Positions 8,425 to 23,255 of a stretch of 24,587 nucleotides of DNA are shown here, piece after piece; position 1 is the stretch's first letter; every line of letters starts with the position of its first letter. The notes under the pieces were generated by a model, which saw nothing but the letters and a program-made list of their open reading frames with translations, was not told the DNA's origin and ran no database searches. The DNA comes from Candidatus Udaeobacter sp. GTDB lineage: Bacteria > Verrucomicrobiota > Verrucomicrobiia > Chthoniobacterales > UBA10450. The translations under genes and the position numbers were made by a program. Where the stretch lies: contig DASTZJ010000067.1 of the NCBI GenBank assembly GCA_035764345.1, positions 1 to 24,587 of the forward strand, written 5' to 3'.

Positions 8425-9522
8425 ATGATCATTGGTGTCCCGAAAGAAATTAAAGAGCAGGAAAAACGCGTCGCGCTGCTGCCTTCGGCTGCGAGTCAAC
8501 TCACGCGACGAGGTCATTCAGTCGTGGTACAAAAGAACGCCGGTATTGGCTCGGGTTACCCGGACGAAGAGTACGTCAAAGCTGGCGCTGAGATTGTTGA
8601 TCAAGCGAAAGAAGTTTTCGCGCGGGCTGACATGGTCGTGAAAGTCAAGGAACCACTCGAAGCGGAGTTTCCTCTGTTGCATAAAGGTCAAATCCTTTTC
8701 ACCTATCTGCATCTGGCTGCGAGTAAATCTCTTACTGAGGCGCTGCTAAAATCGGGCGTGACCGCCGTGGCGTACGAGACGATTCAGGTGGATCATCGTT
8801 TGCCGTTGTTGGAACCGATGAGCGAAATCGCTGGTCGCATGTCGGTGGTGATGGGCGCCAATTTTCTCGCCAAATACAATGGCGGCAGCGGAGTTTTGCT
8901 GGGCGGAGTGCCGGGAGTCTTGCCCGGACGCGTCATTGTTGTGGGCGGAGGCACCTCGGGTGTCAATGCCGCGCGAATGGCTGCTGGTCTTGGCGCAGAC
9001 GTAACAATACTCGATGTGGATCTTGAACGTTTGCGCTATCTCGATCTCTCAATCGTGAGCGCAAACACCCTTTATTCGAACGAAGCGAACTTGCATGATC
9101 TGATGCCCGATTGCGATTTGCTGATAGGCGCGGTGCTTTTGCCCGGTGCGAAAGCGCCGAAGTTAATCACGCGCCAGATGCTGCGAAAAATGAAGCCGGG
9201 CAGTGTGCTCGTGGATATTTCCATCGATCAAGGCGGTTGCGCGGAAACATCCCGGCCCACCACTCACCTTGATCCAGTTTACGTCGAGGAAGGTGTTACG
9301 CATTATTGCGTGGCGAACATGCCCGCTGCCTACGCGCGCACGGCCACCCAAGCGCTTACAAACGTCACGTTTCGTTACGTAGAATTGCTCGCCGATCTCG
9401 GCCTCGATGGTGCATGTAAAAAACAACCGGCGCTCATTGGTGGCATTAACACTCGCGATGGACGGCTCACTTGTAAGGCGGTGGCGGAGGCGCATGGCCT
9501 CAAATACGAAGCCCCGCTTTAA
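8425..9522 (+). CDS. ald: Alanine dehydrogenase
   Basis: 365 aa. IGVPKEIK, KVKEP, FTYLHLA, EPMSEIAGR, GGGTSG Rossmann motif, DISIDQGG, HYCVANMP. Confidence 0.97.
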   Translation: MIIGVPKEIKEQEKRVALLPSAASQLTRRGHSVVVQKNAGIGSGYPDEEYVKAGAEIVDQAKEVFARADMVVKVKEPLEAEFPLLHKGQILFTYLHLAASKSLTEALLKSGVTAVAYETIQVDHRLPLLEPMSEIAGRMSVVMGANFLAKYNGGSGVLLGGVPGVLPGRVIVVGGGTSGVNAARMAAGLGADVTILDVDLERLRYLDLSIVSANTLYSNEANLHDLMPDCDLLIGAVLLPGAKAPKLITRQMLRKMKPGSVLVDISIDQGGCAETSRPTTHLDPVYVEEGVTHYCVANMPAAYARTATQALTNVTFRYVELLADLGLDGACKKQPALIGGINTRDGRLTCKAVAEAHGLKYEAPL

Positions 9523-9880: not shown

Positions 9881-9914
9881 AAGTCTTCTCCTGAGCCTCT
9901 GGGAGAAGACTTTT
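9881..9914 (+). terminator. Candidate intrinsic terminator after the lipoprotein gene
   Basis: Perfect 11-bp stem aagtcttctcc (9881-9891) / ggagaagactt (9902-9912), ending in a T4 run (9911-9914). Confidence 0.5.
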
Positions 9915-9938
9915 GCTGTACGGATGCCGCCTCCCTCA

Positions 9939-9994
9939 TTGGAGGGGCGAGCTCCGCGAGCCCACGATTGGCGTCGCAGAGCTCCGCCCTCCAA
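9939..9994. repeat. GGAG-tagged REP-like doublet
   Basis: ttggaggggcgagctccgcgagccc (9939-9963) and ggcgtcgcagagctccgccctccaa (9970-9994) are imperfect inverted 25-mers, each internally palindromic. Confidence 0.8.
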
Positions 9995-10029
9995 CTTTTT
10001 CGGGCTATGGTAGCGAATCGACAACCGAT

Positions 10030-10392
10030 ATGAAGCGGGCGAGTTCGCTTTCATTTCCAAAGCAGCGCCGCTTGAAGCGCGCGTCCGAATACGAGCGCGT
10101 AAAACGAGACGGCCTGGTACGGCGCGGCAAGCTGCTAACGCTCAGCGCGACGGCAGTCGAAAATTCCGGGCTTTGTCGTATCGGCTTCATTACTTCTCGC
10201 CGCCTCGGAAGCGCGGCAGTTCGCAATCGTGTCCGGCGCCGTTTGCGGGAGATTGTGCGCCAGCACCAGCATGACTTGCGACAAGACTTTTGGATCGTGC
10301 TTATTGCAAAACGCGACGCTACGAACGCGAGCTATCGCGCCTTGGAACATGAATGGTTGCGTCTCGCGAGACGCGCTTCTATCCTGCTCTGA
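10030..10392 (+). CDS. rnpA: Ribonuclease P protein component
   Basis: [38 protein letters not shown] (RNR motif). Start at ATG 10030; the ORF-track extension runs through the REP doublet. Confidence 0.96.
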
Positions 10393-10709
10393 TGCTCTGG
10401 TTGCTTCGTTCTATAATTCGCGTTTATCAATGCACGCTGTCGCCGCTCCTCTGTTTGTTGTGCGGACCTGATTCCGGCTGCCGATTTACGCCGACCTGCT
10501 CGGCATATTTTTTGGAAGCAGTTGAGACACACGGTGTTTGCCACGGAAGCTGGCTGGGATTAAAACGCCTCGCGCGATGCCAACCGTGGGGCGGACATGG
10601 GTATGACCCGGTCCCAAGTGGCAAAAATTTATCCCCCAGCTTGCCTATCGCGACGGCCATGGCGCATCAAGAATCGGGTTTGACGATTGGGCCCGGCTCT
10701 GCTGAGTAG
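10392..10709 (+). CDS. yidD: Membrane protein insertion efficiency factor YidD
   Basis: [40 protein letters not shown] overlaps the rnpA stop (TGATG). Confidence 0.96.
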
Positions 10710-10733
10710 CCGCTCGAACACGACCTACGATTT

Positions 10734-12455
10734 ATGGATCGAACTGCGTGGATTGTCGTTGCCCTTTGTGTAATCGGACTCGTATTGTGGCAAATTTACG
10801 TGGCAAAACAGATGCCGCCGAGACCCGCGCCGGTCAGCGTCGCGCCTGGACAAGCTTCGCCGACTGCAACCGCGAAAATTTTTCAACCTTCTCCGCCGCC
10901 AGTCGTCCCAGAAGCCACGCCGAAGAGCGCCGAGCCGGTTCCTAATTTTGCCGAGAAGATAGAAACGTTGCGAAATTCAGATATCGAGCTGCGTTTAACG
11001 AATCGCGGAGGCGGAATCAAGGAAGCGATCCTCCTTAAGCAGATGGCTGAGAAAGGACAACGCGTTGTGTTGAATTCGGCGCTGAGCGCGCCAATCGGCG
11101 CAATCATTGAACAACCATCAGCGCCAACGCTTCCTGAGTTTACCGCATCGACTGAGTCCAATTCATTTGTGCAATTTGAGCGCACGACTGCCGAGCAAGT
11201 CGCCATCCGGAAGAAATTCTTTTTCGAAAAATCCTCGGAAAACAAAGACAACTACGTGATCGAAATGGATGTCGATCTTGAGAACCGGGGGACCAATCCG
11301 TATCAAAGCGCCGGTTACTTTGTGGCACTAGGGTCGGCAGCGCCTGTTCATCCCAAGGATTATCCTTCCTACACGCGGCTCGTCTGGTGCATCGATGGAA
11401 GGGCAAAAGGAATCGACGTTGGTTGGTTTGGCAGCAGCGGCGGATTTCTTGGGCTGGGCCAACGCGCTGCGCGACCTTATTACGAGGAGAATATCGCCGG
11501 CGCGGAATGGGTTGCCGTGAGCAATCAATTTTTCACCACGCTGCTGGCGCCGCTCACCGCCAAGGCCACTGGCATCTGGGGACGCCGTTTTGATGTCGAA
11601 TATTCGCCGGACCAAAAACTGCCAGCTATCGAGGGCGCGCTTGGCATGCCGGGATTTCAATTGCAGCCCGGGCAAACGTACAGCGCGCGTTTTGAAATCT
11701 ATGCCGGTCCGAAACTTTATCATCGCCTCGCCCAACTTCCGCACAATGAAGCCGAGGTTATGGACTTCGGGATGTTCAAGATCGTCTGCCAGTTTTTGCT
11801 CAACTTCATGAACCTGCTCCACAGCTGGCTGCACGACTATGGCCTCGCCATTCTGGCTCTCACCACGATTATCAAGCTCACGCTCTGGCCGATCCAAAAC
11901 CGGGCGAACCGCTCCATGCGCCAGATGGCTGCGCTCTCGCCAAAAATGCAGGAGTTGAAAGACAAGTACAAAGACGATCCGACGCGGATGAACCAGGAGT
12001 TGATGAAGCTTTACAAACAGTACGGCATCAACCCAGTAGGTGGCTGTTTGCCTATGATGATTCAAATCCCGATCTTTTTCGGTCTCTTCAAGATGCTGGG
12101 TCAGGCGGTGGAATTGCGAAACGCAAAATTTCTTTGGGTAAGAGATCTTTCCCAGCCGGACACGATAGCGCACCTGCCGATCCTCGGGTGGCCGGTCAAT
12201 ATCATCCCTCTTTGCATGGCTGCGACGCAGATTTGGCTCATGGCGATGACGCCAAAGACGGGTGATCCCACTCAGCGCCGGGTCATGATGTTCACGCCGC
12301 TGATCTTTTTATTTATCTGCTACAATTTTGCTGCAGCTCTGGCATTGTATTACACCGCACAGAATCTTTTCAGCATCTTACAATTTTATCAGAACAAACG
12401 ACAACCCATGCCGACGCTGGAAAAAGTTGTGCCCGCCGGAAAACGGAAACGATGA
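10734..12455 (+). CDS. yidC: Membrane protein insertase YidC
   Basis: 573 aa. N-terminal TM, periplasmic domain, YGLAILALTTIIK, LSPKMQELKDKYKDD, INPVGGCLPMMIQIPIFF, LALYY. Confidence 0.98.
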   Translation: MDRTAWIVVALCVIGLVLWQIYVAKQMPPRPAPVSVAPGQASPTATAKIFQPSPPPVVPEATPKSAEPVPNFAEKIETLRNSDIELRLTNRGGGIKEAILLKQMAEKGQRVVLNSALSAPIGAIIEQPSAPTLPEFTASTESNSFVQFERTTAEQVAIRKKFFFEKSSENKDNYVIEMDVDLENRGTNPYQSAGYFVALGSAAPVHPKDYPSYTRLVWCIDGRAKGIDVGWFGSSGGFLGLGQRAARPYYEENIAGAEWVAVSNQFFTTLLAPLTAKATGIWGRRFDVEYSPDQKLPAIEGALGMPGFQLQPGQTYSARFEIYAGPKLYHRLAQLPHNEAEVMDFGMFKIVCQFLLNFMNLLHSWLHDYGLAILALTTIIKLTLWPIQNRANRSMRQMAALSPKMQELKDKYKDDPTRMNQELMKLYKQYGINPVGGCLPMMIQIPIFFGLFKMLGQAVELRNAKFLWVRDLSQPDTIAHLPILGWPVNIIPLCMAATQIWLMAMTPKTGDPTQRRVMMFTPLIFLFICYNFAAALALYYTAQNLFSILQFYQNKRQPMPTLEKVVPAGKRKR

Positions 12456-12937
12456 TGACGCCAAAGGATCTGCTCGATACCATGCTGGGTTATCTCGGTT
12501 TCGTTGTGCAAATCGAGGAGACCAGCAACGAGGGTGGCAACCCGACACTGCAGATTTATACCGAGGAAAGTGGTCGCCTGATTGGGCGCAACGGCGAGAC
12601 ACTGGAGGCCATCCAGTTTTTGCTCAACCGACTGTTGCAATCAAGGGACAAGGATGCTGAAAAAGTAATTGTGGATTGTGAGCATTACCGCTCCATGCGC
12701 GAAGACCGCATCGTGCAAAGGGTTCGGGAATTGGCCGAACGCGTGCGCATTACCGGCCGTTCGCTTCAGCTCGAGCCGATGAATTCCTACGAACGCCGCC
12801 TCGTCCATAATGCTTTCAAAGACGATCCCGATGTAGCGACTTGGAGCCCCTCCGATTCAGCGCGCATCAAACAAATCACGCTGGTGAAGCGCCAGCCAAA
12901 AAAAGAACCAGCGTCAAAAGAGCGGATATCATCCTGA
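12452..12937 (+). CDS. jag: Jag/KhpB-like RNA-binding protein (KH + R3H, lacking Jag_N)
   Basis: LIGRNGETLEAIQFLLN (KH), VIVDCEHYR, LEPMNSYERRLVH (R3H). ATGA overlap with yidC. Confidence 0.9.
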   Translation: MMTPKDLLDTMLGYLGFVVQIEETSNEGGNPTLQIYTEESGRLIGRNGETLEAIQFLLNRLLQSRDKDAEKVIVDCEHYRSMREDRIVQRVRELAERVRITGRSLQLEPMNSYERRLVHNAFKDDPDVATWSPSDSARIKQITLVKRQPKKEPASKERISS

Positions 12938-13093: not shown

Positions 13094-14164
13094 ATGAAAA
13101 CACTCACGCTTACGCCATTTGCTTTTTGCCTCGCCATTCTCGCACTTGGCGGGACCGTTTCCGCACAAAACGATTTAAACCTGCCTGATGTAAGTCAGGC
13201 TGCCAAGGTCAAACAGCGCATCGCCCTGACGGATATTACCGTCAATTATCATCGGCCGTTGGTGAACGGACGAAAAATTTGGGGAGGCCTCGTCCCCTAC
13301 GACAAAGTCTGGCGCGCGGGTGCTAATGAAAACACGACGATTGAATTTAGCGATCCGGTTTGGGTAGAGGGGCAACCGCTAGCCAAAGGAACTTATGGTC
13401 TGCACATGATCCCGAACCCGGATTCGTGGACGGTGATTTTTTCAAAAACCAACACGGGGTGGGGAAGCTACAGCTATAAGCAGGACGAGGATGCTTTGCG
13501 CGTGACTGTGAAACCGAAGCCGCTTGCTGAGCCGAAAGAGGCGCTCGAATTTGATTTCGAAGATTTGAAACCGGATTCGACAGCCCTGACGCTAAAATGG
13601 GAGAAATTGGGTGTCCCCTTTACTGTCTCGATTAAGGACGCGGATCAGACGCTGCAGAACATCCGGGCGCAGCTAAAGGGACGCGGCCAGTTTACCTGGC
13701 AAGCTTTGGACGAGGGGGCGCAATTTTGTTTAACCAGAAAGATTAATCTCGATGAAGCGTTGCGCTGGGCCGATGCCTCAATTCAGAATGAGGAAAGGTT
13801 CGATAACCTTAGTACCAAAGCCGATATCCTCAAAGCCCTGAATCGCCCGGATGAGGCGAAAACCGCTTGGAACCGTGCAGTCGAAATTGCCACTCCGGTA
13901 CAGCTCTATTCGTATGGTCGACGTTTACAGAGTCAGAAGCAGGGTGTCGAAGCGATGGAGATCTTCCAACAGGCGGCGAAACGGTTTCCGCAAGGAGTCT
14001 ACGGAGATCTGGCGCGAGCGCGCATCAAGTCTGCAGCAGGTGATTTCGCCGGCGCGGCCAACGAGGCCAAGCAGGCGCAAGCTGCCGCTCCTACGGATGC
14101 GCAGAAACAGAGCATCAAAGCTCTGATCGATCGCCTGGAGGCGAAGCAGGATATCAACAAGTAG
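13094..14164 (+). CDS. DUF2911 domain protein with C-terminal TPR-like helices, signal peptide
   Basis: Signal peptide, then SQAAKVKQRIALTDITVNYHRP, GRKIWGGLVPYDKVWRAGANENT, GTYGLHMIP; alanine-rich helical C-terminus. Confidence 0.9.
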   Translation: MKTLTLTPFAFCLAILALGGTVSAQNDLNLPDVSQAAKVKQRIALTDITVNYHRPLVNGRKIWGGLVPYDKVWRAGANENTTIEFSDPVWVEGQPLAKGTYGLHMIPNPDSWTVIFSKTNTGWGSYSYKQDEDALRVTVKPKPLAEPKEALEFDFEDLKPDSTALTLKWEKLGVPFTVSIKDADQTLQNIRAQLKGRGQFTWQALDEGAQFCLTRKINLDEALRWADASIQNEERFDNLSTKADILKALNRPDEAKTAWNRAVEIATPVQLYSYGRRLQSQKQGVEAMEIFQQAAKRFPQGVYGDLARARIKSAAGDFAGAANEAKQAQAAAPTDAQKQSIKALIDRLEAKQDINK

Positions 14165-14237
14165 CGCGTTGGCGCATGCTGTCCCCGGACCCGGGAGGAT
14201 AGCGCTCGATAGGACATTCACAATCGGGAGTCCGACG

Positions 14238-16763
14238 TTGCACGTAACGCACCAGAGCATTTCGCGCTGTTGGCGAGCAGCTGTTTGGATTGCGATGATC
14301 GCCGTCCGGTGCCCGGCCAATTCGGCCGATGCGCCGCCGTTGTTATCTCCTGCGCAGATGAATGGTGGCGAGATTCAGCTCGCACTACAGAAGCTCAACG
14401 TGCTTGGCCGGGTCCTTTACATTGCGGCTCACCCTGATGATGAGAACACGAATCTCATGGCCCTCTGGGCGAACGGCTCACTTTATGACAGCGCTTACCT
14501 TTCAATTACACGCGGGGATGGCGGTCAGAATTTGATCGGACCGGAACTGCGCGAGCGCCTCGGCGTTATTCGAACGGAAGAATTGCTGGCAGCGCGGCGC
14601 ATCGATCACGGCAAACAATTCTTCTCACGAGCAATCGATTTCGGGTTTTCCAAGACAGCCGACGAGAGCATGCGCATCTGGAATCACGACAAAATTCTAG
14701 CCGATGTGGTCTGGGTGGTCCGGAAGTTCCGACCGGATGTAATGGTGACGCGCTTCAGTCCGGAGGATCAACTGACGCATGGCCATCACACGGCATCGGC
14801 CATTCTGGCGCGTGAAGCATTCGCGGCCTCTGGTGACCCAAATCGTTTCCCAGAGCAACTGGCTTTTGTAAAACCCTGGCGCCCGACGCGGCTGGTTTGG
14901 AACACGTCGCCATTTTTCTTTTCGAACCGCAATCTTCCTTTCGATCCGACAGGTCTGACTGTTTTGGAAGCGGGCGGTTACAATCCGCTTCTTGGGAAAG
15001 CGTATACGGAAATTGCGGCCGCAAGTCTAAGCATGCACAAGAGTCAGGGCGTGGGCAGCCCGCCCCGGCGCGGAGCGCGAAAAGAATATTTCAAACTATT
15101 GGAAGGTCAGCCCATGACGAGCTCGCTTTTCGAAGGCATCAATACGAGCTGGTCGCGAGTCCCGAATTCGGAATCGGTCGCTACAGAAATTGGTCAGATC
15201 ATTTCACAGTTTCATCCAACCGATCCAGCCGCGTCCGTGCCTGAGTTATTGAAGCTACGGCAGGCGATGAGTGGAATTAAGGATGACTCCTGGGTCCCGG
15301 AGAAGAAAGCCGAATTGGACGAAATTATCGCCGCTTGTCTCGGTTTGCATGTGGAAGCATCAACAAGCAACGAGACCGTCACGCCAGGACAAACGGAGAA
15401 GATAAAGTTAGAGGCAATTAACCGCTACGATATTCCAATCACACTACAGGAGGTACGATTTCCGCCGTCCGGCGACTCGATGAAGATCGATGCGGCGCTT
15501 CCATCCAACGAGCTCGTCGCGAAGGATGTGTCGTGCAAGATCCCGGAGAATACTCCTTATTCGCAGCCCTACTGGCTTCGTAAACCTGGAACGCTCGGCG
15601 CCTTCGCTGTGGATGATCAAACACTGGTCGGCTTGCCCGAAAATCCCCCGGAACTCCCAGTCGAGATAATCCTGCAAGTAAATGGACAGGAACTCCACTA
15701 TATCGTGGACACGAAGTATCGCACGGTCGACCCGGTGGCGGGCGAACTGCGACGACCGTTGGTCATCGCGCCGCCTGTTTTCGCGAAAATCGCGGACAAC
15801 GTGTTGGTATTCCCGACAAATCAACCAAAACCTGTTTCAGTACGTGTCACCGCGGCCACCGGCCCAGTGAAGGGAGACCTTAAACTAGCTGTGCCCCAGG
15901 GGTGGGAAGTCGAACCGGCGTCTGTGCCCATAGATTTAAATGGAGCCGACGTCGAGACCGCGGCCACGTTTACCGTCAAACCACCGGACCAGAATAGCGA
16001 AGGGACGTTGCGAGCCATCGTTTCGATTGACGGCCGCGACTATTCCTTCGAGCGCGTGCGGATTTCCTATCCGCACATCGGCGTCCAAACGCTGATGCCA
16101 CCGGCGGAAGTAAAACTTATTCGGGCTGATATCCGCAAGAAAGGCGATCGCATCGGCTACATTCCCGGTGCCGGCGATGATATTCCGGAAAGCCTGCAAC
16201 AAATCGGTTACTCAGTGAAGATGTTGAGCGAACCGGATATCACGGCGAAGAACCTCGCGCAGTTCTCTGCCGTTGTGCTAGGGATCCGGGCCTTCAACAC
16301 GCAGGAGCGAATTGCCAACTGGTTGCCGGAACTATTTGCCTATGTACAAGCTGGCGGAGTTGCGATCGCGCAGTACAACACCCTGGCAGAGCTTAAGACC
16401 GAGCAACTGGGGCCGTATCCATTGGAAATTTCACGCGACCGCGTCACCGACGAAAACGCGGAGGTGCGTATTCTGGCGCCCAATCATCCGCTTATGACTG
16501 CGCCAAACAAGATCACGTCGAAAGATTTCGAGGGATGGGTGCAGGAACGCGGACTTTACTTTCCTAAGAAATGGGATCCCGCCTGGACACCGATCTTGTC
16601 GTGCAACGATCCAAAGGAAAAGCCACTCGATGGTGGTTTGCTGGTTGCAAAATTAGGCAAAGGTTTCTTTATCTACACGAGTTATTCGTGGTTTCGACAG
16701 TTACCTGCCGGCATCCCGGGAGCTTATCGGTTAGTCTCGAACATGTTGTCATTGGGAAAATGA
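14238..16763 (+). CDS. Large PIG-L/LmbE family Zn-dependent deacetylase with Ig-like (NEW3-like) and C-terminal GATase-like regions
   Basis: AAHPDDENT, TRGDGGQN, DFGFSK, RPDVMVTRF, HGHH metal motifs; C-terminal GYIPGAGD, LGIRAFN, GWVQERGLYF. Start uncertain: TTG at 14238 follows GGGAG (14226-14230) and gives a signal-peptide-like N-terminus; the ORF track uses TTG at 14169. Confidence 0.9.
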   Translation: MHVTHQSISRCWRAAVWIAMIAVRCPANSADAPPLLSPAQMNGGEIQLALQKLNVLGRVLYIAAHPDDENTNLMALWANGSLYDSAYLSITRGDGGQNLIGPELRERLGVIRTEELLAARRIDHGKQFFSRAIDFGFSKTADESMRIWNHDKILADVVWVVRKFRPDVMVTRFSPEDQLTHGHHTASAILAREAFAASGDPNRFPEQLAFVKPWRPTRLVWNTSPFFFSNRNLPFDPTGLTVLEAGGYNPLLGKAYTEIAAASLSMHKSQGVGSPPRRGARKEYFKLLEGQPMTSSLFEGINTSWSRVPNSESVATEIGQIISQFHPTDPAASVPELLKLRQAMSGIKDDSWVPEKKAELDEIIAACLGLHVEASTSNETVTPGQTEKIKLEAINRYDIPITLQEVRFPPSGDSMKIDAALPSNELVAKDVSCKIPENTPYSQPYWLRKPGTLGAFAVDDQTLVGLPENPPELPVEIILQVNGQELHYIVDTKYRTVDPVAGELRRPLVIAPPVFAKIADNVLVFPTNQPKPVSVRVTAATGPVKGDLKLAVPQGWEVEPASVPIDLNGADVETAATFTVKPPDQNSEGTLRAIVSIDGRDYSFERVRISYPHIGVQTLMPPAEVKLIRADIRKKGDRIGYIPGAGDDIPESLQQIGYSVKMLSEPDITAKNLAQFSAVVLGIRAFNTQERIANWLPELFAYVQAGGVAIAQYNTLAELKTEQLGPYPLEISRDRVTDENAEVRILAPNHPLMTAPNKITSKDFEGWVQERGLYFPKKWDPAWTPILSCNDPKEKPLDGGLLVAKLGKGFFIYTSYSWFRQLPAGIPGAYRLVSNMLSLGK

Positions 16764-16879
16764 AAATGGGCGATACTAAGCCAGATGCGCGTTCCTGGCG
16801 CAAAGCGTATGGTCTGGCGCTTTCTCTTTTTGCAGTGGAGGTAGTGCTTCTCTACCTTTTCACCGTCCGGTTTTCGTGA
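16760..16879 (+). CDS. 39-aa single-pass membrane peptide, putative partner of the symporter
   Basis: MKMGDTKPDARSWRKAYGLALSLFAVEVVLLYLFTVRFS. ATGA overlap with the PIG-L stop and GTGA overlap with the symporter start. Confidence 0.8.
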   Translation: MKMGDTKPDARSWRKAYGLALSLFAVEVVLLYLFTVRFS

Positions 16880-18582
16880 ACCGGCTGGACTATCTCGTTC
16901 TCATCGCCACGATTCTGGCGATCCCGCTTTATGGTCTCTGGCGAACCCGCGGAAGCGCTTCTTTAGGTCAGTATCTCCGGGGCGATGCGAGTATTCGGTG
17001 GGCCACAATTGGACTCTCCATGCTCGCGACGCAGGCAGGACCGATCACGTTTCTTTCCATGCCGGGCCAGGCCTATGAGAGCGGCATAGGGTTTATCCAG
17101 AATTATTTTGGACAGCCGCTCGCGCTTATCGTTGTGTGCGCAGTCTTCGTTCCGATCTATCAGCGGCTGAAAGTTTACACGGCCTATCAGTACCTCGGCG
17201 AGCGGTTCGATCGGAAGACGCAGCTACTCGGCGCCTTCCTGTTTCTTGTGCAGCGAGGCATCGCTGCTGGAATCACGATCTACGCACCGGCCATTATTCT
17301 CTCCGCCTCGCTCGGGTGGCGCTTGAACCTGACCATTTGGCTCGCGGGTGGATTGGTTATCATCTACACGGTCGCGGGCGGAACCAAAATTGTAAGCATC
17401 ACCCAACGCTACCAGATGATCGTGATTTTGCTCGGCATGGCGATTGCATTTGCGGTCGCGGTTTACCGGCTATCGCCCGATCTCTCGTTTGAAAGCGCGC
17501 TATCGGTCGCGGGCAAAATGGGCAAACTGGAGGCGGTCGATTTTTCCGTCGATCCGCACAAGCGCTATACATTCTGGTCGGGCCTGATTGGCGGCTTTTT
17601 TCTCGCACTTTCCTATTTCGGAGCGGATCAATCGCAGGTGCAACGATATCTTGCGGGGGGCTCGCTCAAAGAGAGTCGTCTCGGATTGCTGTTCAATGCC
17701 GTGGTGAAGGTACCGATGCAATTTTTCATTCTGGCACTAGGCGCGATTGTTTTCATGTTTTATCAATTCGAAAAACCGCCTGTTTACTTCAATCAGCCGG
17801 CGTACCAGCGTGCGGTGGAGAGCGGCTATGCACCGCAGTTAGCGGCGTTGCAGACACAATTCGATAACGTCTTCGTGCAAAAACGTGCTCTAATTCGCGT
17901 TGTTTCCAGCGCATCGCCGCAGCGTCCGTCGAACGAGCGTGATGCGGCCATGACCAGGCTGCGCGAGCTCGACGCGCAGGCGCGCGAGTTGCGCGATCGC
18001 ACCAAGGGAGTTCTCGAGCAAGCGGGCGTCGATCCAAAAAACAAGGACTCCGATTACGTGTTCATTACTTTTATTCTTCAACAAATGCCGCACGGGCTTG
18101 TCGGATTACTCATCGCAGTGATCTTGTGCGCGACCATGTCGGCGACGGCAGCAACTCTGAATGCTCTCGGTTCTACCACAGCCATCGATTTTTATCGGCC
18201 GTTGATTCGTACAAACGCGAGCGACCATCATTATGTCGTCGCGGCGAAAGCACTGACAACGGCGTGGGGTTTGATTGCAATCGGAGTCGCGTCGTTTGCC
18301 AGTTTGGTCGAAAATTTAATCGAAGCCGGCAACATCCTGGGGTCGGTGTTTTATGGTAGCATTCTGGGTCTTTTTTTGGCGGCTTTCTTTATTCGACGAG
18401 TTACCGGATCTGCGGTGTTTTTCGCGGCGCTTTTTGCCCAAGCGCTTGTCTTCATCCTGTTCGCTACGACGAATATCGGTTACCTCTGGTACAATTTTAT
18501 TGGGTGCGCGGCCGTGCTGATCGTGGCGCCAGTTCTGCAGCAAACCGTCTTTCGCGGCACGGAAGCTCCCGTTGGGGTATGA
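16876..18582 (+). CDS. Sodium:solute symporter (SLC5/SSS family)
   Basis: 568 aa, many TMs. GLSMLATQAGPITFLSMPGQAY, TAYQYLGERFD, YTVAGG, YFGADQSQVQRYL, LVGLLIAVILCATMS. Confidence 0.95.
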   Translation: MNRLDYLVLIATILAIPLYGLWRTRGSASLGQYLRGDASIRWATIGLSMLATQAGPITFLSMPGQAYESGIGFIQNYFGQPLALIVVCAVFVPIYQRLKVYTAYQYLGERFDRKTQLLGAFLFLVQRGIAAGITIYAPAIILSASLGWRLNLTIWLAGGLVIIYTVAGGTKIVSITQRYQMIVILLGMAIAFAVAVYRLSPDLSFESALSVAGKMGKLEAVDFSVDPHKRYTFWSGLIGGFFLALSYFGADQSQVQRYLAGGSLKESRLGLLFNAVVKVPMQFFILALGAIVFMFYQFEKPPVYFNQPAYQRAVESGYAPQLAALQTQFDNVFVQKRALIRVVSSASPQRPSNERDAAMTRLRELDAQARELRDRTKGVLEQAGVDPKNKDSDYVFITFILQQMPHGLVGLLIAVILCATMSATAATLNALGSTTAIDFYRPLIRTNASDHHYVVAAKALTTAWGLIAIGVASFASLVENLIEAGNILGSVFYGSILGLFLAAFFIRRVTGSAVFFAALFAQALVFILFATTNIGYLWYNFIGCAAVLIVAPVLQQTVFRGTEAPVGV

Positions 18583-18597
18583 AGCTCGTTCTGAGGG

Positions 18598-19365
18598 ATG
18601 GATCACCCGATAATTTGTTTCGGCCAGCAACCGTGTGGATTTTTTCCCAAGCGATTTTTGTTCGCTAAGATTCTGACGGCTCGTCGTCTCCAAAAGGAAA
18701 TTGGCGGTGAAATCGTCTTTTTCTTTCACGACAGCGATCATGACCCGCGCGAGACGACCACGATTTTGCGAGACCAAACCAGCAACCAGGAAATGGCCCT
18801 AAACTTTCAGTTCGAGAATCGGATCCAAAAGCAGTTTTCTCCTCTCTACGCCAAACGGGTTCTCCCGGAATGGCAGGAGAAAACTGCGCGCCAACTTCCA
18901 AGTTACGTAGGGCGGCCTCTGGTAGCACATTTCAAGGAAACCAAATGTTCGAATGTCGCCGACTTCTGTCTCGAGATGTACACCCGGATGGGGTTGCTGG
19001 AGGGTGTGCGGGTGGAGCGGTCCAGTGCACCCGAATTCAGAGCGCGTGCTATGACGGTCTCAGATTATTTCGTCGATCAGCGTTATGAAGGAGAGATCGT
19101 TCGCGCACGTTACCACGACGGGAAATTGCTGCTACACAAAGGAGGCGATCGATTTCTAGAGATTCCCGGAGAAGAATTCGGTCCGAAGCAGATCAGCCCG
19201 ACCCGCGATACGCGTTTCCGTTGGATGCAATCAGTAATTCGATGCACGCATTACGTCGCCGGTGCGAGCGAGCAGCATTACATCAACAAGGCGGATGCTC
19301 CCAAGGTGAAATTCATCAAGCGCGACGAGATTTCTGACTTCAACAAAGCTTATACGGAGCTGTAA
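18598..19365 (+). CDS. Short BshC-like protein (putative cysteine-adding enzyme, catalytic core only)
   Basis: GQQ (9-11), K24-IL, FFFHDSDHDPRE and SPTRDTRFRWMQ...HYVAGASEQHY align by eye with BshC motifs GQQAG..KII, FWVAGEDHDLDE and SNNVVTRPLMQ...FIAGPGEINY. Only 255 aa. Confidence 0.75.
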   Translation: MDHPIICFGQQPCGFFPKRFLFAKILTARRLQKEIGGEIVFFFHDSDHDPRETTTILRDQTSNQEMALNFQFENRIQKQFSPLYAKRVLPEWQEKTARQLPSYVGRPLVAHFKETKCSNVADFCLEMYTRMGLLEGVRVERSSAPEFRARAMTVSDYFVDQRYEGEIVRARYHDGKLLLHKGGDRFLEIPGEEFGPKQISPTRDTRFRWMQSVIRCTHYVAGASEQHYINKADAPKVKFIKRDEISDFNKAYTEL

Positions 19366-20492
19366 TGGAATCGGGGCCGCTCAAAATTGGGATTGCATGT
19401 TTTCCGTTGATTGGCGGCAGTGGGATTTTGGCGACAGCCCTCGGGTCAGAACTGGCGCGCCGCGGTCATGAAGTTTACTTGTTCAGTTATGCTCAGCCCG
19501 TTCGGCTAGAACTGCCGCAGGAGGGTCTTCATTTCCATCGAGTCGAATTTGCGGACAACGCTTTGTTTCCCTGTCCCGACTACACTCTACCGCTCGCAGT
19601 GAAAATGGCGGAAGTGGCGCGTTCCCAGCAACTCGATCTTTTTCATGTTCATTACGCGGTGCCGCACGCACTGGCCGCGTGTTTAGCCTCGCAGATTGTA
19701 GGACAGTCAGCTCCGCGCATCGTCACAACCTTGCACGGAAGCGATACCACTCTGCTGGGGCAGGATCCCGATTACCGAACCGCCATCGAGCATGCCCTTG
19801 TGCATTCCGATGCGGTGACAGCAGTGTCAGAAAATCTTCGGAATCAAACCCAGGAAATCTTTCATTTAAAACGACCGATTGAAGTGATTCCGAATTTCTT
19901 CACTCCCAATAAACCGAAGAGAAGTCGTGAGGAAGTTCGACGCGATTGCGGCGTAGCCGACAAATTTCTCGTGTTACACATGTCGAATTTGCGACCGGTC
20001 AAACGCATAGACCTTTTATTGCGCACGATTGCTTTGTCGAAAAACCGGGCACGTCTTCGATTATTCATTTTAGCGGGCGGCCCTTTTGATCCATACGAAC
20101 CACTGGTCGATGAATTGGGACTCCGCGATAGCGTTATTGTTCGCCAAAACATGGCTGTGGTAGAAGAGTATTTGGAGGCCGCGGATGCGGGACTCTACAC
20201 CTCCGAATACGAAAGTTTCGGTCTGGGCATCCTTGAGACGGTATTTTATGGTAAACCGGTCGTCGCCTTTCGCGTCGGCGGTATTCCCGAAGTTATGGGC
20301 GATTCTTGTCCCCTATATCCTTTCGGTGATGTAACCGCGGCTGCTGCTGCGTTAGACGCGTTGGTTGAATCTCCGAATTTGGCCCGCGAACTAGGTGAAC
20401 GCAGTCGCGCTCGCGTGCTTGAAAGGTTCTCAGCAGATCGCGTTGTCCCTCGGTATGAAGCGTTGTATCGCCGCATAGTTGCCGGTCGATAG
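19365..20492 (+). CDS. bshA: N-acetyl-alpha-D-glucosaminyl L-malate synthase-like GT4 glycosyltransferase
   Basis: LKIGIACFPLIGGSGILAT, HVHYAVPHA, IVTTLHGSD, HMSNLRPVKR, ESFGLGILE, GGIPEV are colinear with BshA. TAATG overlap with the upstream gene. Confidence 0.9.
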   Translation: MESGPLKIGIACFPLIGGSGILATALGSELARRGHEVYLFSYAQPVRLELPQEGLHFHRVEFADNALFPCPDYTLPLAVKMAEVARSQQLDLFHVHYAVPHALAACLASQIVGQSAPRIVTTLHGSDTTLLGQDPDYRTAIEHALVHSDAVTAVSENLRNQTQEIFHLKRPIEVIPNFFTPNKPKRSREEVRRDCGVADKFLVLHMSNLRPVKRIDLLLRTIALSKNRARLRLFILAGGPFDPYEPLVDELGLRDSVIVRQNMAVVEEYLEAADAGLYTSEYESFGLGILETVFYGKPVVAFRVGGIPEVMGDSCPLYPFGDVTAAAAALDALVESPNLARELGERSRARVLERFSADRVVPRYEALYRRIVAGR

Positions 20493-20530: not shown

Positions 20531-21721
20531 TCACGTCGTCGATTCAGGCTCGCTCCGGAAACGTGCAACATCTGTTCCGCTTCCCGTACGCACTTCAGGT
20601 CGCCAACGAAACTTTTCCAGAATTGGATTGAATTTTTCCTCGACGGCATCGGCGATGATTTCGCCGAGGACGGGCGCAAATTTGAATCCATGCCCGCAAT
20701 CGCCGGCAGTGATCACCAGTCCTTCGCGCTCCGGATCGGGCGCGATCCAAAAATTTCCATCATGCGTTTCGCAGTACATGCACACGCGCGTATAAACAAT
20801 TGGTGCATCGGCCAGCGCGGGAAACGCCCATGATAAAAACTTGCGCAGATTCTCTTCTTCCTCGGAAGTGACGATGCGTTGGGGCGATTCGGGCGACATC
20901 TCACGTCCTGGACCGTGGTTTGCGATCTTCACAATGCCCTCATGGTTGAGCGGAAATCCATAATAGCCGGTCGTCGTAATGTCTGCGCCAAAGACAGGGA
21001 ACTGTGCAGGCGCGAACAGCTCAGGTTGCCGAGGTTTCAGATGAAACACCGGTTGGCCGCTGGCGCGAAAGAACCTTTTCGTGAAAGGCAACACATATGG
21101 AGTCCACGCACCGGCCGCCATCACCACCGCATTCCCCGTGATGCGCTCTCCGTTGTCCAGGACAATTCCTTCAATGCGGTCATCGCGCTCATCCAAATCG
21201 GCGAAACGGCTGCCGCTGCGTAGCTCGACGCCGATGGACACTGCGCGTTGAACTAAGGTCGCGACCGCACGGCCGCTTTCTGCATAGCCTGCTTCAACCT
21301 CAAGAAGACCATCTCGGAACAATTCCGGATTCCAGGCTGGAAATCGCTTCCACAGTTGTGCTGAATTCATTCGCTCAATTTTGTGGCCACGCTGTTGTAA
21401 CGTTCTGAAACTTTCGTACTCAAAATCGCCGGGCTTCATCTCTCGACGGCGTACGAACATCACCCCGACCTCATGATACAACTCGATGCCGAATTCTTCG
21501 TTCCATTTACGCCAGAGTTTAATCGAGCGTTCTGCAAGCTCTGTGTAGTCTTCGTCCGCTCCATAAGCCGCGCGAACGGCTTTGCTGATGTCGGTGGATG
21601 CCCCGAGCGGATGCGGTAACGGTCCCGGATCGACCAAAATCACTCCGTAGGCACGTTTCTTTAATTCGATGGCGGCAGCGACCCCGTTAACTCCTGCACC
21701 AACAACGATGACTTTCGACAT
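20531..21721 (-). CDS. FAD-dependent amine oxidase, sarcosine oxidase / fructosyl-amino acid oxidase family
   Basis: VIVVGAGVNG dinucleotide motif, ASTDISKAVRAAYG, AAGAWT, RVCMYCET (covalent-FAD Cys position), GDCGHGFKFAPVLG. Start at ATG 21721. Confidence 0.88.
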   Translation of the reverse strand: MSKVIVVGAGVNGVAAAIELKKRAYGVILVDPGPLPHPLGASTDISKAVRAAYGADEDYTELAERSIKLWRKWNEEFGIELYHEVGVMFVRRREMKPGDFEYESFRTLQQRGHKIERMNSAQLWKRFPAWNPELFRDGLLEVEAGYAESGRAVATLVQRAVSIGVELRSGSRFADLDERDDRIEGIVLDNGERITGNAVVMAAGAWTPYVLPFTKRFFRASGQPVFHLKPRQPELFAPAQFPVFGADITTTGYYGFPLNHEGIVKIANHGPGREMSPESPQRIVTSEEEENLRKFLSWAFPALADAPIVYTRVCMYCETHDGNFWIAPDPEREGLVITAGDCGHGFKFAPVLGEIIADAVEEKFNPILEKFRWRPEVRTGSGTDVARFRSEPESTT

Positions 21722-21739
21722 GTTACAAGAGCGCACGTT

Positions 21740-21992: not shown

Positions 21993-23255
21993 CTACGATG
22001 CCATTCGCAGCGCGCGTTCCCGTTCGAGCAGGGTCGGATGCGAGTAATAGAAGGCACTGTAGAGCGGGTGCGGCGTGAGATTGCTCAGGTTTTTTTCGCT
22101 CAATTTGCGCAACGCTTGAATGAGTGATTGTGCCTCTTCCATTGTCACACGCGCGAATGTATCCGCCTGGTATTCGAAACGGCGCGACCAGAAGTGAAGC
22201 AACGGCGAAAACCAGAAAGTTATCGTCCCCGCCAGCAGCGCGAACAGCAATATCGCGGGAACGACATTGGTGGCAGCAAAGCCTCCCTGATACGCAAAAC
22301 CGAATGCGCGATAAAACCATTGTTGACGCGCCAGCCAGGCGATCGCGGCGAAAGCCACAAACACACCCGCGATGGAAACGCTGAGCATCTTAATTATGTG
22401 GCGCTTTTTGTAATGGCCAATTTCATGCGCGAGGACCGATTCCAGTTCCAGTTCGGTGAGCTGATCGATGAGTGTGTCGAACAGAACGATTTTTCGAAAT
22501 CGTCCAAACCCGGTGAAGAAGGCGTTGGAGTGACGCGATCGTTTGCTGCCATCCATTACCTCGATGCTTCGCGTGGGAAAATGGGTGCGCTGCGCCAGTG
22601 CAAACAGCCGCTCGTGCAATGCTCCTTCTGGCAGCGGTGTGAACTTGTTGAAAAGCGGCATGATAAGCGCCGGCGCGACGAACAGCAGAAGCAATTGAAA
22701 CGCCATAACAACCGCTGCGGCCCAAAGCCACCAGTTTGCGCCAGTCCACTCGATCAGTTTCAATACCAGCACAAGCAACGGATAGCCGAGCAGCACCGCG
22801 AGCAGAAATCCTTTCACACGATCGAGGACCCACGTCTTCATGCTGGTGGTGTTGAAACCGAATCGCTCTTCGATTTTGAATTGCGCGTACCATGCGAATG
22901 GCAAGGCTGGGATGCTCAACACAATCCCTGTAAGAAAAAGAAAACCAGCCATTGCCCAGACCGAACTGCCGAAACTCGCGCTGAATCTCCCAAACGCCCA
23001 TGACAGCACGCCGCTGAAAAGCACTGCCATAAGTATCACCGCATCGAACACGCCGGCGATATCTCCGAATCGGCTCCTGGCGAGTGTGTAATCGACCGAG
23101 CGGCGATACGTCGCGCCGTCCATGACTCCACGAAACTCGCGCGGCACTTCGTTCCTGCGTTCGCTTACGTGATTCTGGTTCAGTCGGCTCAGCCACAGTT
23201 CGGTGAAGACGCGTGCAAGAATCAGAGCCAGGGCAATGACAGCGAACGGCGACAT
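21993..23255 (-). CDS. M48 family zinc metalloprotease (Ste24-like)
   Basis: 420 aa, multi-TM. FNKFTPL, VMDGSKRSRHSNAFFTGFG, LAHEIGH (HEXXH), EYQAD, YYSHPTLLER. Confidence 0.95.
   Translation of the reverse strand: MSPFAVIALALILARVFTELWLSRLNQNHVSERRNEVPREFRGVMDGATYRRSVDYTLARSRFGDIAGVFDAVILMAVLFSGVLSWAFGRFSASFGSSVWAMAGFLFLTGIVLSIPALPFAWYAQFKIEERFGFNTTSMKTWVLDRVKGFLLAVLLGYPLLVLVLKLIEWTGANWWLWAAAVVMAFQLLLLFVAPALIMPLFNKFTPLPEGALHERLFALAQRTHFPTRSIEVMDGSKRSRHSNAFFTGFGRFRKIVLFDTLIDQLTELELESVLAHEIGHYKKRHIIKMLSVSIAGVFVAFAAIAWLARQQWFYRAFGFAYQGGFAATNVVPAILLFALLAGTITFWFSPLLHFWSRRFEYQADTFARVTMEEAQSLIQALRKLSEKNLSNLTPHPLYSAFYYSHPTLLERERALRMAS

Follow-up and report, generated by a model that had tools for sequence, protein, structure and literature searches.

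A 255-residue remote homologue of BshC is encoded next to bshA in Candidatus Udaeobacter

We analysed a stretch of 24,587 nucleotides, here called the window, from a metagenome-assembled genome (MAG) of the soil bacterium Candidatus Udaeobacter (2.2 Mb, 70% complete). The nearest relatives of this MAG bear the labels Candidatus Udaeobacter or Chthoniobacterales and belong to the phylum Verrucomicrobiota. The gene under study is an open reading frame of 255 codons on the forward strand, which we refer to as the short gene and its product as the short protein (Table 1). A TGA codon lies in frame at 18592–18594, 3 nt before the ATG, and the symporter gene upstream runs up to 18582, 15 nt ahead of the short gene; because of these two features, an N-terminal extension of the short protein is impossible. 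At the other end, the last A of the TAA stop codon (19363–19365) is also the first base of the bshA start codon (19365–19367), giving a TAATG overlap. The 255-residue reading frame coupled to bshA that an earlier note on this DNA had described is thus present.

Table 1. Features of the short gene and its upstream and downstream neighbours in the window
Feature	Coordinates	Strand	Assignment or evidence
DUF2911 + TPR protein	13094..14164	+	PF11138
Large PIG-L-domain protein, ~860 aa, signal-peptide-like N-terminus	14169..16763	+	PF02585
Sodium:solute symporter (SSF)	16876..18582	+	PF00474, TIGR00813
Short BshC-like gene, 255 aa, Rossmann-like catalytic core only	18598..19365	+	ORF, hhalign, AlphaFold2, 4WBD, dN/dS
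GQQ motif (G9, Q10, Q11), end of strand 1, position of HIGH in class I aminoacyl-tRNA synthetases	18622..18630	+	BshC-invariant G91, Q92, Q93
DSDHDPRE block (D45–E52), after strand 2	18730..18753	+	D47, H48, D49, E52 = BshC-invariant D135, H136, D137, E140
C-terminal signature S200...R206...Q211...Y219..G222..E225..Y228	19195..19281	+	BshC S333, R339, Q343, Y352, G355, E358, Y361
Codons of C7, C124, C216, H218	18616–18618, 18967–18969, 19243–19245, 19249–19251	+	Residues that BshC lacks
bshA (GlcNAc-malate synthase, GT4)	19365..20492	+	TIGR03999 equivalog, 358.2 bits, cut-off 273.7

Further upstream, the window holds an alanine dehydrogenase gene (8425–9522) and an ordinary run of rnpA, yidC and a KH/R3H (Jag/KhpB-like) gene (9913–12937); an M48 peptidase gene lies at 21993–23255. 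Convergent with bshA is a gene for an FAD-dependent amine oxidase (20531–21736, reverse strand), whose closest match, N-methyl-L-tryptophan oxidase, reaches 227 bits and stays below the cut-off, and which is conserved within Udaeobacter only (13 of 80 loci).

The same neighbours recur around the short gene. Across 80 related loci, the symporter lies directly upstream in 77 and bshA adjoins downstream in 75, and the large PIG-L and DUF2911-TPR genes are found in 64 and 59, respectively. The symporter also directly precedes the short gene in two other family- or class-level lineages. A PIG-L protein of ~850–900 residues together with a Na+/solute symporter is encoded upstream of the short gene in Udaeobacter (14169–18582), in another family of the class (L104 8498–13147) and in a Kiritimatiellia-labelled genome (L105 721–5062). 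The best NCBIfam match of the large PIG-L protein is weak and points to the mycothiol conjugate amidase Mca. The true start of its gene is probably downstream of 14169. Three orthologues have a hydrophobic N-terminal stretch ahead of the AHPDD domain and, because of this signal-peptide-like N-terminus, the protein is probably exported. The large PIG-L protein and the symporter may work together as a module for transport and for salvage or conjugate processing that is linked to a thiol pathway.

In more distant Chthoniobacterales, a gene for a BshB1-like deacetylase of ~240 residues (TIGR04001, 127–140 bits) stands between the short gene and bshA, and the order short gene, bshB1-like gene, bshA recurs in further families of the class as well as in a genome labelled Kiritimatiellia. 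Most of the lineages with the short gene show this order. The verrucomicrobial genome G109 carries a canonical operon in the order methyltransferase, bshC, bshB1, bshA. Since bshC-bshB1-bshA in G109 stands against short gene-bshB1-like-bshA elsewhere, the short gene occupies the exact slot of bshC. The methyltransferase gene of G109 (L103 2799–7024 for the whole cluster) encodes a SAM-dependent enzyme and overlaps the start of the canonical operon; it is possibly an NmbA-like bacillithiol N-methyltransferase.

We compared the distribution of the short gene with those of BshA and BshC. A PF10079 search of this genome and 40 relatives gave no match, and among 41 relatives the short gene stands beside BshA in every one of the 18 genomes with BshA above the cut-off. 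BshA is present in 22 of 301 Verrucomicrobiota genomes; 20 of these 22 have the short gene adjoining bshA and the remaining two carry full-length BshC, counts that should be read as a pattern and not as a statistic, since the surveyed genomes are related. None of the 301 genomes has both the short gene and BshC, and in no case does the short gene occur where BshA is absent. Among these genomes, the short gene is mutually exclusive with canonical BshC and strictly linked to bshA in both position and presence.

Family models do not recognize the short protein. Against Pfam and NCBIfam, it matches no family at E≤0.1 (none in Pfam even at E≤10), and the BshC family HMMs (PF10079/TIGR03998) give no match above their curated cut-offs. 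A search of PDB sequences with the single sequence returned no match. The sole match of a family-profile search of PDB sequences was an aminotransferase, which we rejected since its E-value of 0.36 is at chance level. Pairwise BLASTP between the short protein and a verrucomicrobial BshC aligned the block from GQQ to DHD with an E-value of 0.6, which is not significant.

For profile–profile comparison with hhalign, we used an alignment of 13 clean full-length members of the short family and one of 20 diverse BshC proteins, a member of which matches the BshC structure 4WBD with an E-value of 5e-118. Local alignment of the two families gave a probability of 92.7% (E 4.2e-7) and global alignment one of 96% (E 2.4e-9), with BshC residues ~83–418 pairing with residues 1–255 of the short protein.

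The AlphaFold2 model of the short protein is compact and confident (pLDDT 94.4, pTM 0.91), and its top PDB match in Foldseek is 4WBD, B. subtilis BshC (E 2.2e-10). VIA-align superimposes 237 of the 255 residues on 4WBD with an rmsd of 2.7 Å and a Z-score of 20.1; the runner-up is class I LysRS (1IRX; Z 14.6), followed by other class I synthetases with Z-scores of 8–10. BshC families were also returned by the AFDB clusters and by the feature search of the ESM Atlas. Prediction of a homodimer from two copies of the short protein gave no answer (score 0.00), which bears neither way on the oligomeric state. The short protein is a remote homologue of BshC that shares its Rossmann-like core fold. 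The earlier note had staked its reading on a profile or structural match to BshC, and the matches by hhalign, Foldseek and VIA-align are all significant.

To compare the two families at the residue level, we mapped the columns that are invariant in 20 BshC sequences onto 13 + 79 short-family sequences; putative active-site residues were chosen by their conservation across BshC. About 15 of the BshC-invariant core residues are identical and invariant in the short family. K24 corresponds to BshC-invariant K106, and the equivalents of the other motif residues are given in Table 1. The four motif blocks previously proposed to follow the BshC order are aligned in that order by the profile–profile comparison and fall on BshC-invariant columns. 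In the AlphaFold2 model, the first strand is formed by residues 5–10 (IICFGQ), so that the protein does begin directly at the first Rossmann strand (IICFGQQ), as had been claimed; its end shortly after HYVAGASEQHY is likewise borne out, with 27 residues between this block and the C-terminus.

Three parts of BshC are missing from the short protein. The N-terminal ~82 residues of BshC, which include the conserved R53 and N64, have no counterpart, and a helical insert at ~238–285 (~40 residues) is missing. The short protein ends at BshC position ~418 at the latest and lacks the C-terminal coiled-coil/dimerisation domain (PF24850), where the invariant residues P502, Q507, E508, R509 and H539 of BshC have no counterpart.

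The short family also has residues of its own. Of the two extra Cys residues that the earlier note had pointed out near the GQQ motif, C7 is kept throughout the family (13 of 13 diverse members and 79 of 79 Chthoniobacterales; Val in BshC), and C13 is conserved in Verrucomicrobiota only, with Asn in distant short-family members and an invariant Gly in BshC. Together with C7, C124 is invariant, and C216 and H218 are near-invariant.

A word-indexed search returned 6885 homologues of the short gene, with a length of ~255 residues for all of the 120 matches listed. An exhaustive search gave 243 clusters at 50% identity, with no protein of BshC length among the 150 listed, and 572 species-representative genomes encode a relative of the short protein. 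The median pairwise dN/dS of the short gene is 0.107 (79 orthologues), close to the values for bshA (0.099) and the symporter gene (0.087); the short gene is under purifying selection. Same-length homologues and a dN/dS near that of bshA rule out a strain-specific truncated pseudogene, the outcome that had been named beforehand as fatal to the minimal-BshC reading. Since the match to BshC is significant and the truncation reading failed, the proposal of a naturally minimal BshC without both ends is upheld, and we class the short protein, which shows no HMM match, N-terminal segment or C-terminal domain of BshC, as a minimal variant inside the BshC superfamily and not as a BshC orthologue. It may also need a partner protein or add a different acyl group, as the earlier note suggested. 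A frameshift or an assembly error divides the short gene of one congener into two overlapping frames (G006:C22:627608-628370), and two other MAGs (G002, G004) each have two copies on separate contigs, probably due to strain mixtures.

Short homologues with 31–59% identity also occur on contigs whose gene content is archaeal (PolD, eIF-2 beta, Alba, Rpp14 and archaeal Dph6). In two such contigs, which are independent of each other (L100 6001–7430 and L107 5801–7277), the short homologue and a convergent gene for a BshB1-like PIG-L deacetylase (118 and 155 bits) overlap, and a BshA-like gene was seen in neither within 6 kb. A GNAT acetyltransferase gene lies immediately upstream in L107. Among the named carriers of a short homologue are an Aenigmatarchaeota MAG, a Polarisedimenticolia MAG and an Opitutales MAG.

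We searched for the remaining components of a bacillithiol pathway. No orthologue of BshB1/B2 was found in five Udaeobacter genomes, comprising this one (70% complete) and more complete congeners, whose PIG-L proteins are only the apparently exported large one and unrelated paralogues. The small BshB1-like gene that other lineages have between the short gene and bshA (cf. L078 8888–9604) has been lost from the genus Udaeobacter. A cytoplasmic PIG-L protein of 373 residues, encoded on contig C162 of this genome (L108 1459–2580), and small PIG-L paralogues of the congeners are candidate cytoplasmic deacetylases. The BshB-like proteins of short-type loci score 118–155 bits, below the equivalog cut-off of 182.5, and those of short-type operons score 127–140 bits versus 207 bits in the canonical operon. 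BshA scores 345–423 bits in short-type operons versus 451–461 bits for the canonical operon, and is above its equivalog cut-off everywhere.

Among eight short-type genomes searched, none has the bacilliredoxins YtxJ/BrxC or BrxA/B, and the five of them searched for YpdA gave no match above the cut-off, whereas both Verrucomicrobiota genomes with long BshC carry YtxJ and BrxA/B. The absence of YtxJ and bacilliredoxins is weak evidence, since in control genomes of Thermus and Bacteroides the BshC model was matched and the YtxJ and bacilliredoxin models were silent. Glutathione synthetase was not found in five genomes that carry the short gene.

We consider it likely that the short protein, as a minimal enzyme of the BshC superfamily, does the job of BshC, which is to complete a bacillithiol-type pathway. 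Glucosamine-malate with a free amino group would come from BshA and a PIG-L deacetylase, and the short enzyme would join cysteine (or a close analogue), in activated form, to this amino group. The N-terminal segment and the C-terminal coiled-coil/dimerisation domain of BshC would then be dispensable for the chemistry. In Udaeobacter, the short gene, which lies behind the genes for the symporter and the apparently exported large PIG-L protein, is translationally coupled with bshA and would be co-transcribed with it. A bacillithiol-type thiol in the carriers is plausible, and the product or the redox partners of the short-type pathway may differ from the Bacillus paradigm.

We infer the catalytic activity, substrates and product of the short enzyme from its homology and gene context, and the statement that it works like BshC carries the uncertainty that comes with a reference enzyme whose own reaction was never reconstituted. 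Counting against a BshC-like function are the silence of the BshC HMMs and the N- and C-terminal invariant residues without counterpart, as well as the lack of BshB1/B2 in the Udaeobacter genomes searched, the missing bacilliredoxins and the BshB-like scores below cut-off.

The enzyme could also be a BshC-type ligase whose product is a variant of bacillithiol, with another amino or acyl group or with another aglycone made by a diverged BshA, and with non-canonical redox partners. The absence of YtxJ and BrxA/B from short-type genomes, set against their presence in the long-BshC genomes of the phylum, lends this idea some weight, as do the lower BshB-like and BshA equivalog scores in short-type operons, the family's own C7, C124, C216 and H218, and the symporter and large PIG-L genes conserved beside the operon. 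However, BshA remains over its equivalog cut-off everywhere, and the Thermus and Bacteroides controls weaken the argument from redox partners. Moreover, the residues held in common with BshC are exactly those that are invariant across BshC, which argues for the same chemistry. We regard a variant product as rather unlikely.

A role outside biosynthesis, in which a BshC-fold protein serves the salvage or catabolism of GlcNAc-malate-type compounds together with the exported PIG-L protein and the symporter, or acts as a regulatory or binding protein, strikes us as very improbable. The short gene is accompanied by the symporter and large PIG-L genes as consistently as by bshA, Udaeobacter is without a recognizable cytoplasmic BshB, and the C-terminal domain with its invariant BshC residues is missing, all of which would fit such a role. 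Against it stand the mutual exclusion with BshC among BshA-positive genomes and the occupation of BshC's operon position, the invariance of the putative active-site residues, and the archaeal members, which are outside the symporter and large PIG-L context yet have kept a BshB-like neighbour.

A truncated pseudogene, or an artefact of gene calling or assembly, would suit a gene of half the BshC length that the family models miss, but it can be dismissed in view of the thousands of homologues (same-length wherever listed), the fixing of both gene boundaries by neighbouring genes, the dN/dS of 0.107, the confidently predicted compact fold and the conservation across classes and in Archaea.

The preferred reading, a minimal enzyme for the last step of a bacillithiol-type pathway, has a bearing on the chemistry of BshC itself. 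The BshC reaction has never been reconstituted (PMC5790435; PMC4360819), and more than a decade on, bacillithiol synthesis has no other step whose reaction and activated substrate are still unknown (PMC5790435). A natural single-domain version with the conserved core only narrows what this chemistry needs, and the short protein is a simpler target for biochemistry and crystallography than BshC.

Verrucomicrobia have been placed among the lineages without a documented or predicted low-molecular-weight thiol (Hiras et al. 2018, PMC6282198), and a BLAST survey of 2025 found the pathway in no archaeon (PMC12719100). Both surveys required full-length BshC and would therefore have missed the short family. 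From the short gene beside bshA, a bacillithiol-type thiol is predicted for a phylum that was believed to lack one. Our literature search found no paper that pairs Udaeobacter with bacillithiol and none that describes the short family, for which there is no Pfam or NCBIfam model and whose members are called 'hypothetical protein' wherever they are named. Public metagenomes hold thousands of near-identical homologues of the short gene from Candidatus Udaeobacter.

It is possible, if on the doubtful side, that the short family adds Cys or another amino acid in a separate low-molecular-weight thiol system that has so far escaped detection, with a bacillithiol-like backbone and a non-canonical product or non-canonical redox partners. 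The users of such a system would be Udaeobacter, other Chthoniobacterales, the Opitutales MAG, Kiritimatiellia and some Archaea (the Aenigmatarchaeota MAG). If this were true, abundant soil Verrucomicrobiota would be among them, and a single-domain enzyme of 255 residues could allow the BshC reaction to be reconstituted.

Among known proteins, the closest is BshC (B. subtilis YllA; 4WBD; PF10079 Rossmann-like_BshC and PF24850 CC_BshC; TIGR03998), the putative enzyme for adding cysteine in bacillithiol synthesis, which has the core fold and the motif order GQQ, K, DHD..E, S..R..Q, Y..G..E..Y in common with the short protein. The two differ in length (~520–570 residues for BshC versus 255) and have a sequence identity of about 16–19%.

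Class I aminoacyl-tRNA synthetases (LysRS 1IRX, TyrRS, GluRS and CysRS) resemble the short protein much more weakly than BshC does, having likewise a Rossmann-fold nucleotide-binding core. Their HIGH motif is replaced by GQQP(C/N)G in the short family, the sequence of the short protein shows no KMSKS-like loop, and the anticodon-binding domain is missing from it. Class I synthetases and MshC, the CysRS-related cysteine ligase of mycothiol synthesis, form an amide or ester bond with an activated amino acid, and by analogy the short enzyme might do the same. We know of no BshC for which ATP-dependent adenylation of Cys, the chemistry of MshC, has been demonstrated.

In size, the short protein is close to the WbqC-like proteins (~190–260 residues), which are small, uncharacterised and encoded in polysaccharide gene clusters. 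They differ from it in genomic context and show no match at the sequence level (PF08889 is not hit by the short protein), whereas predicted structures of several of them in AFDB match its model with Foldseek E-values of 8e-7 to 2.5e-4 and TM-scores of ~0.5–0.56, a likeness at the level of the fold only. Judging from these models, small BshC-fold proteins, including the WbqC family, may make up a wider superfamily.
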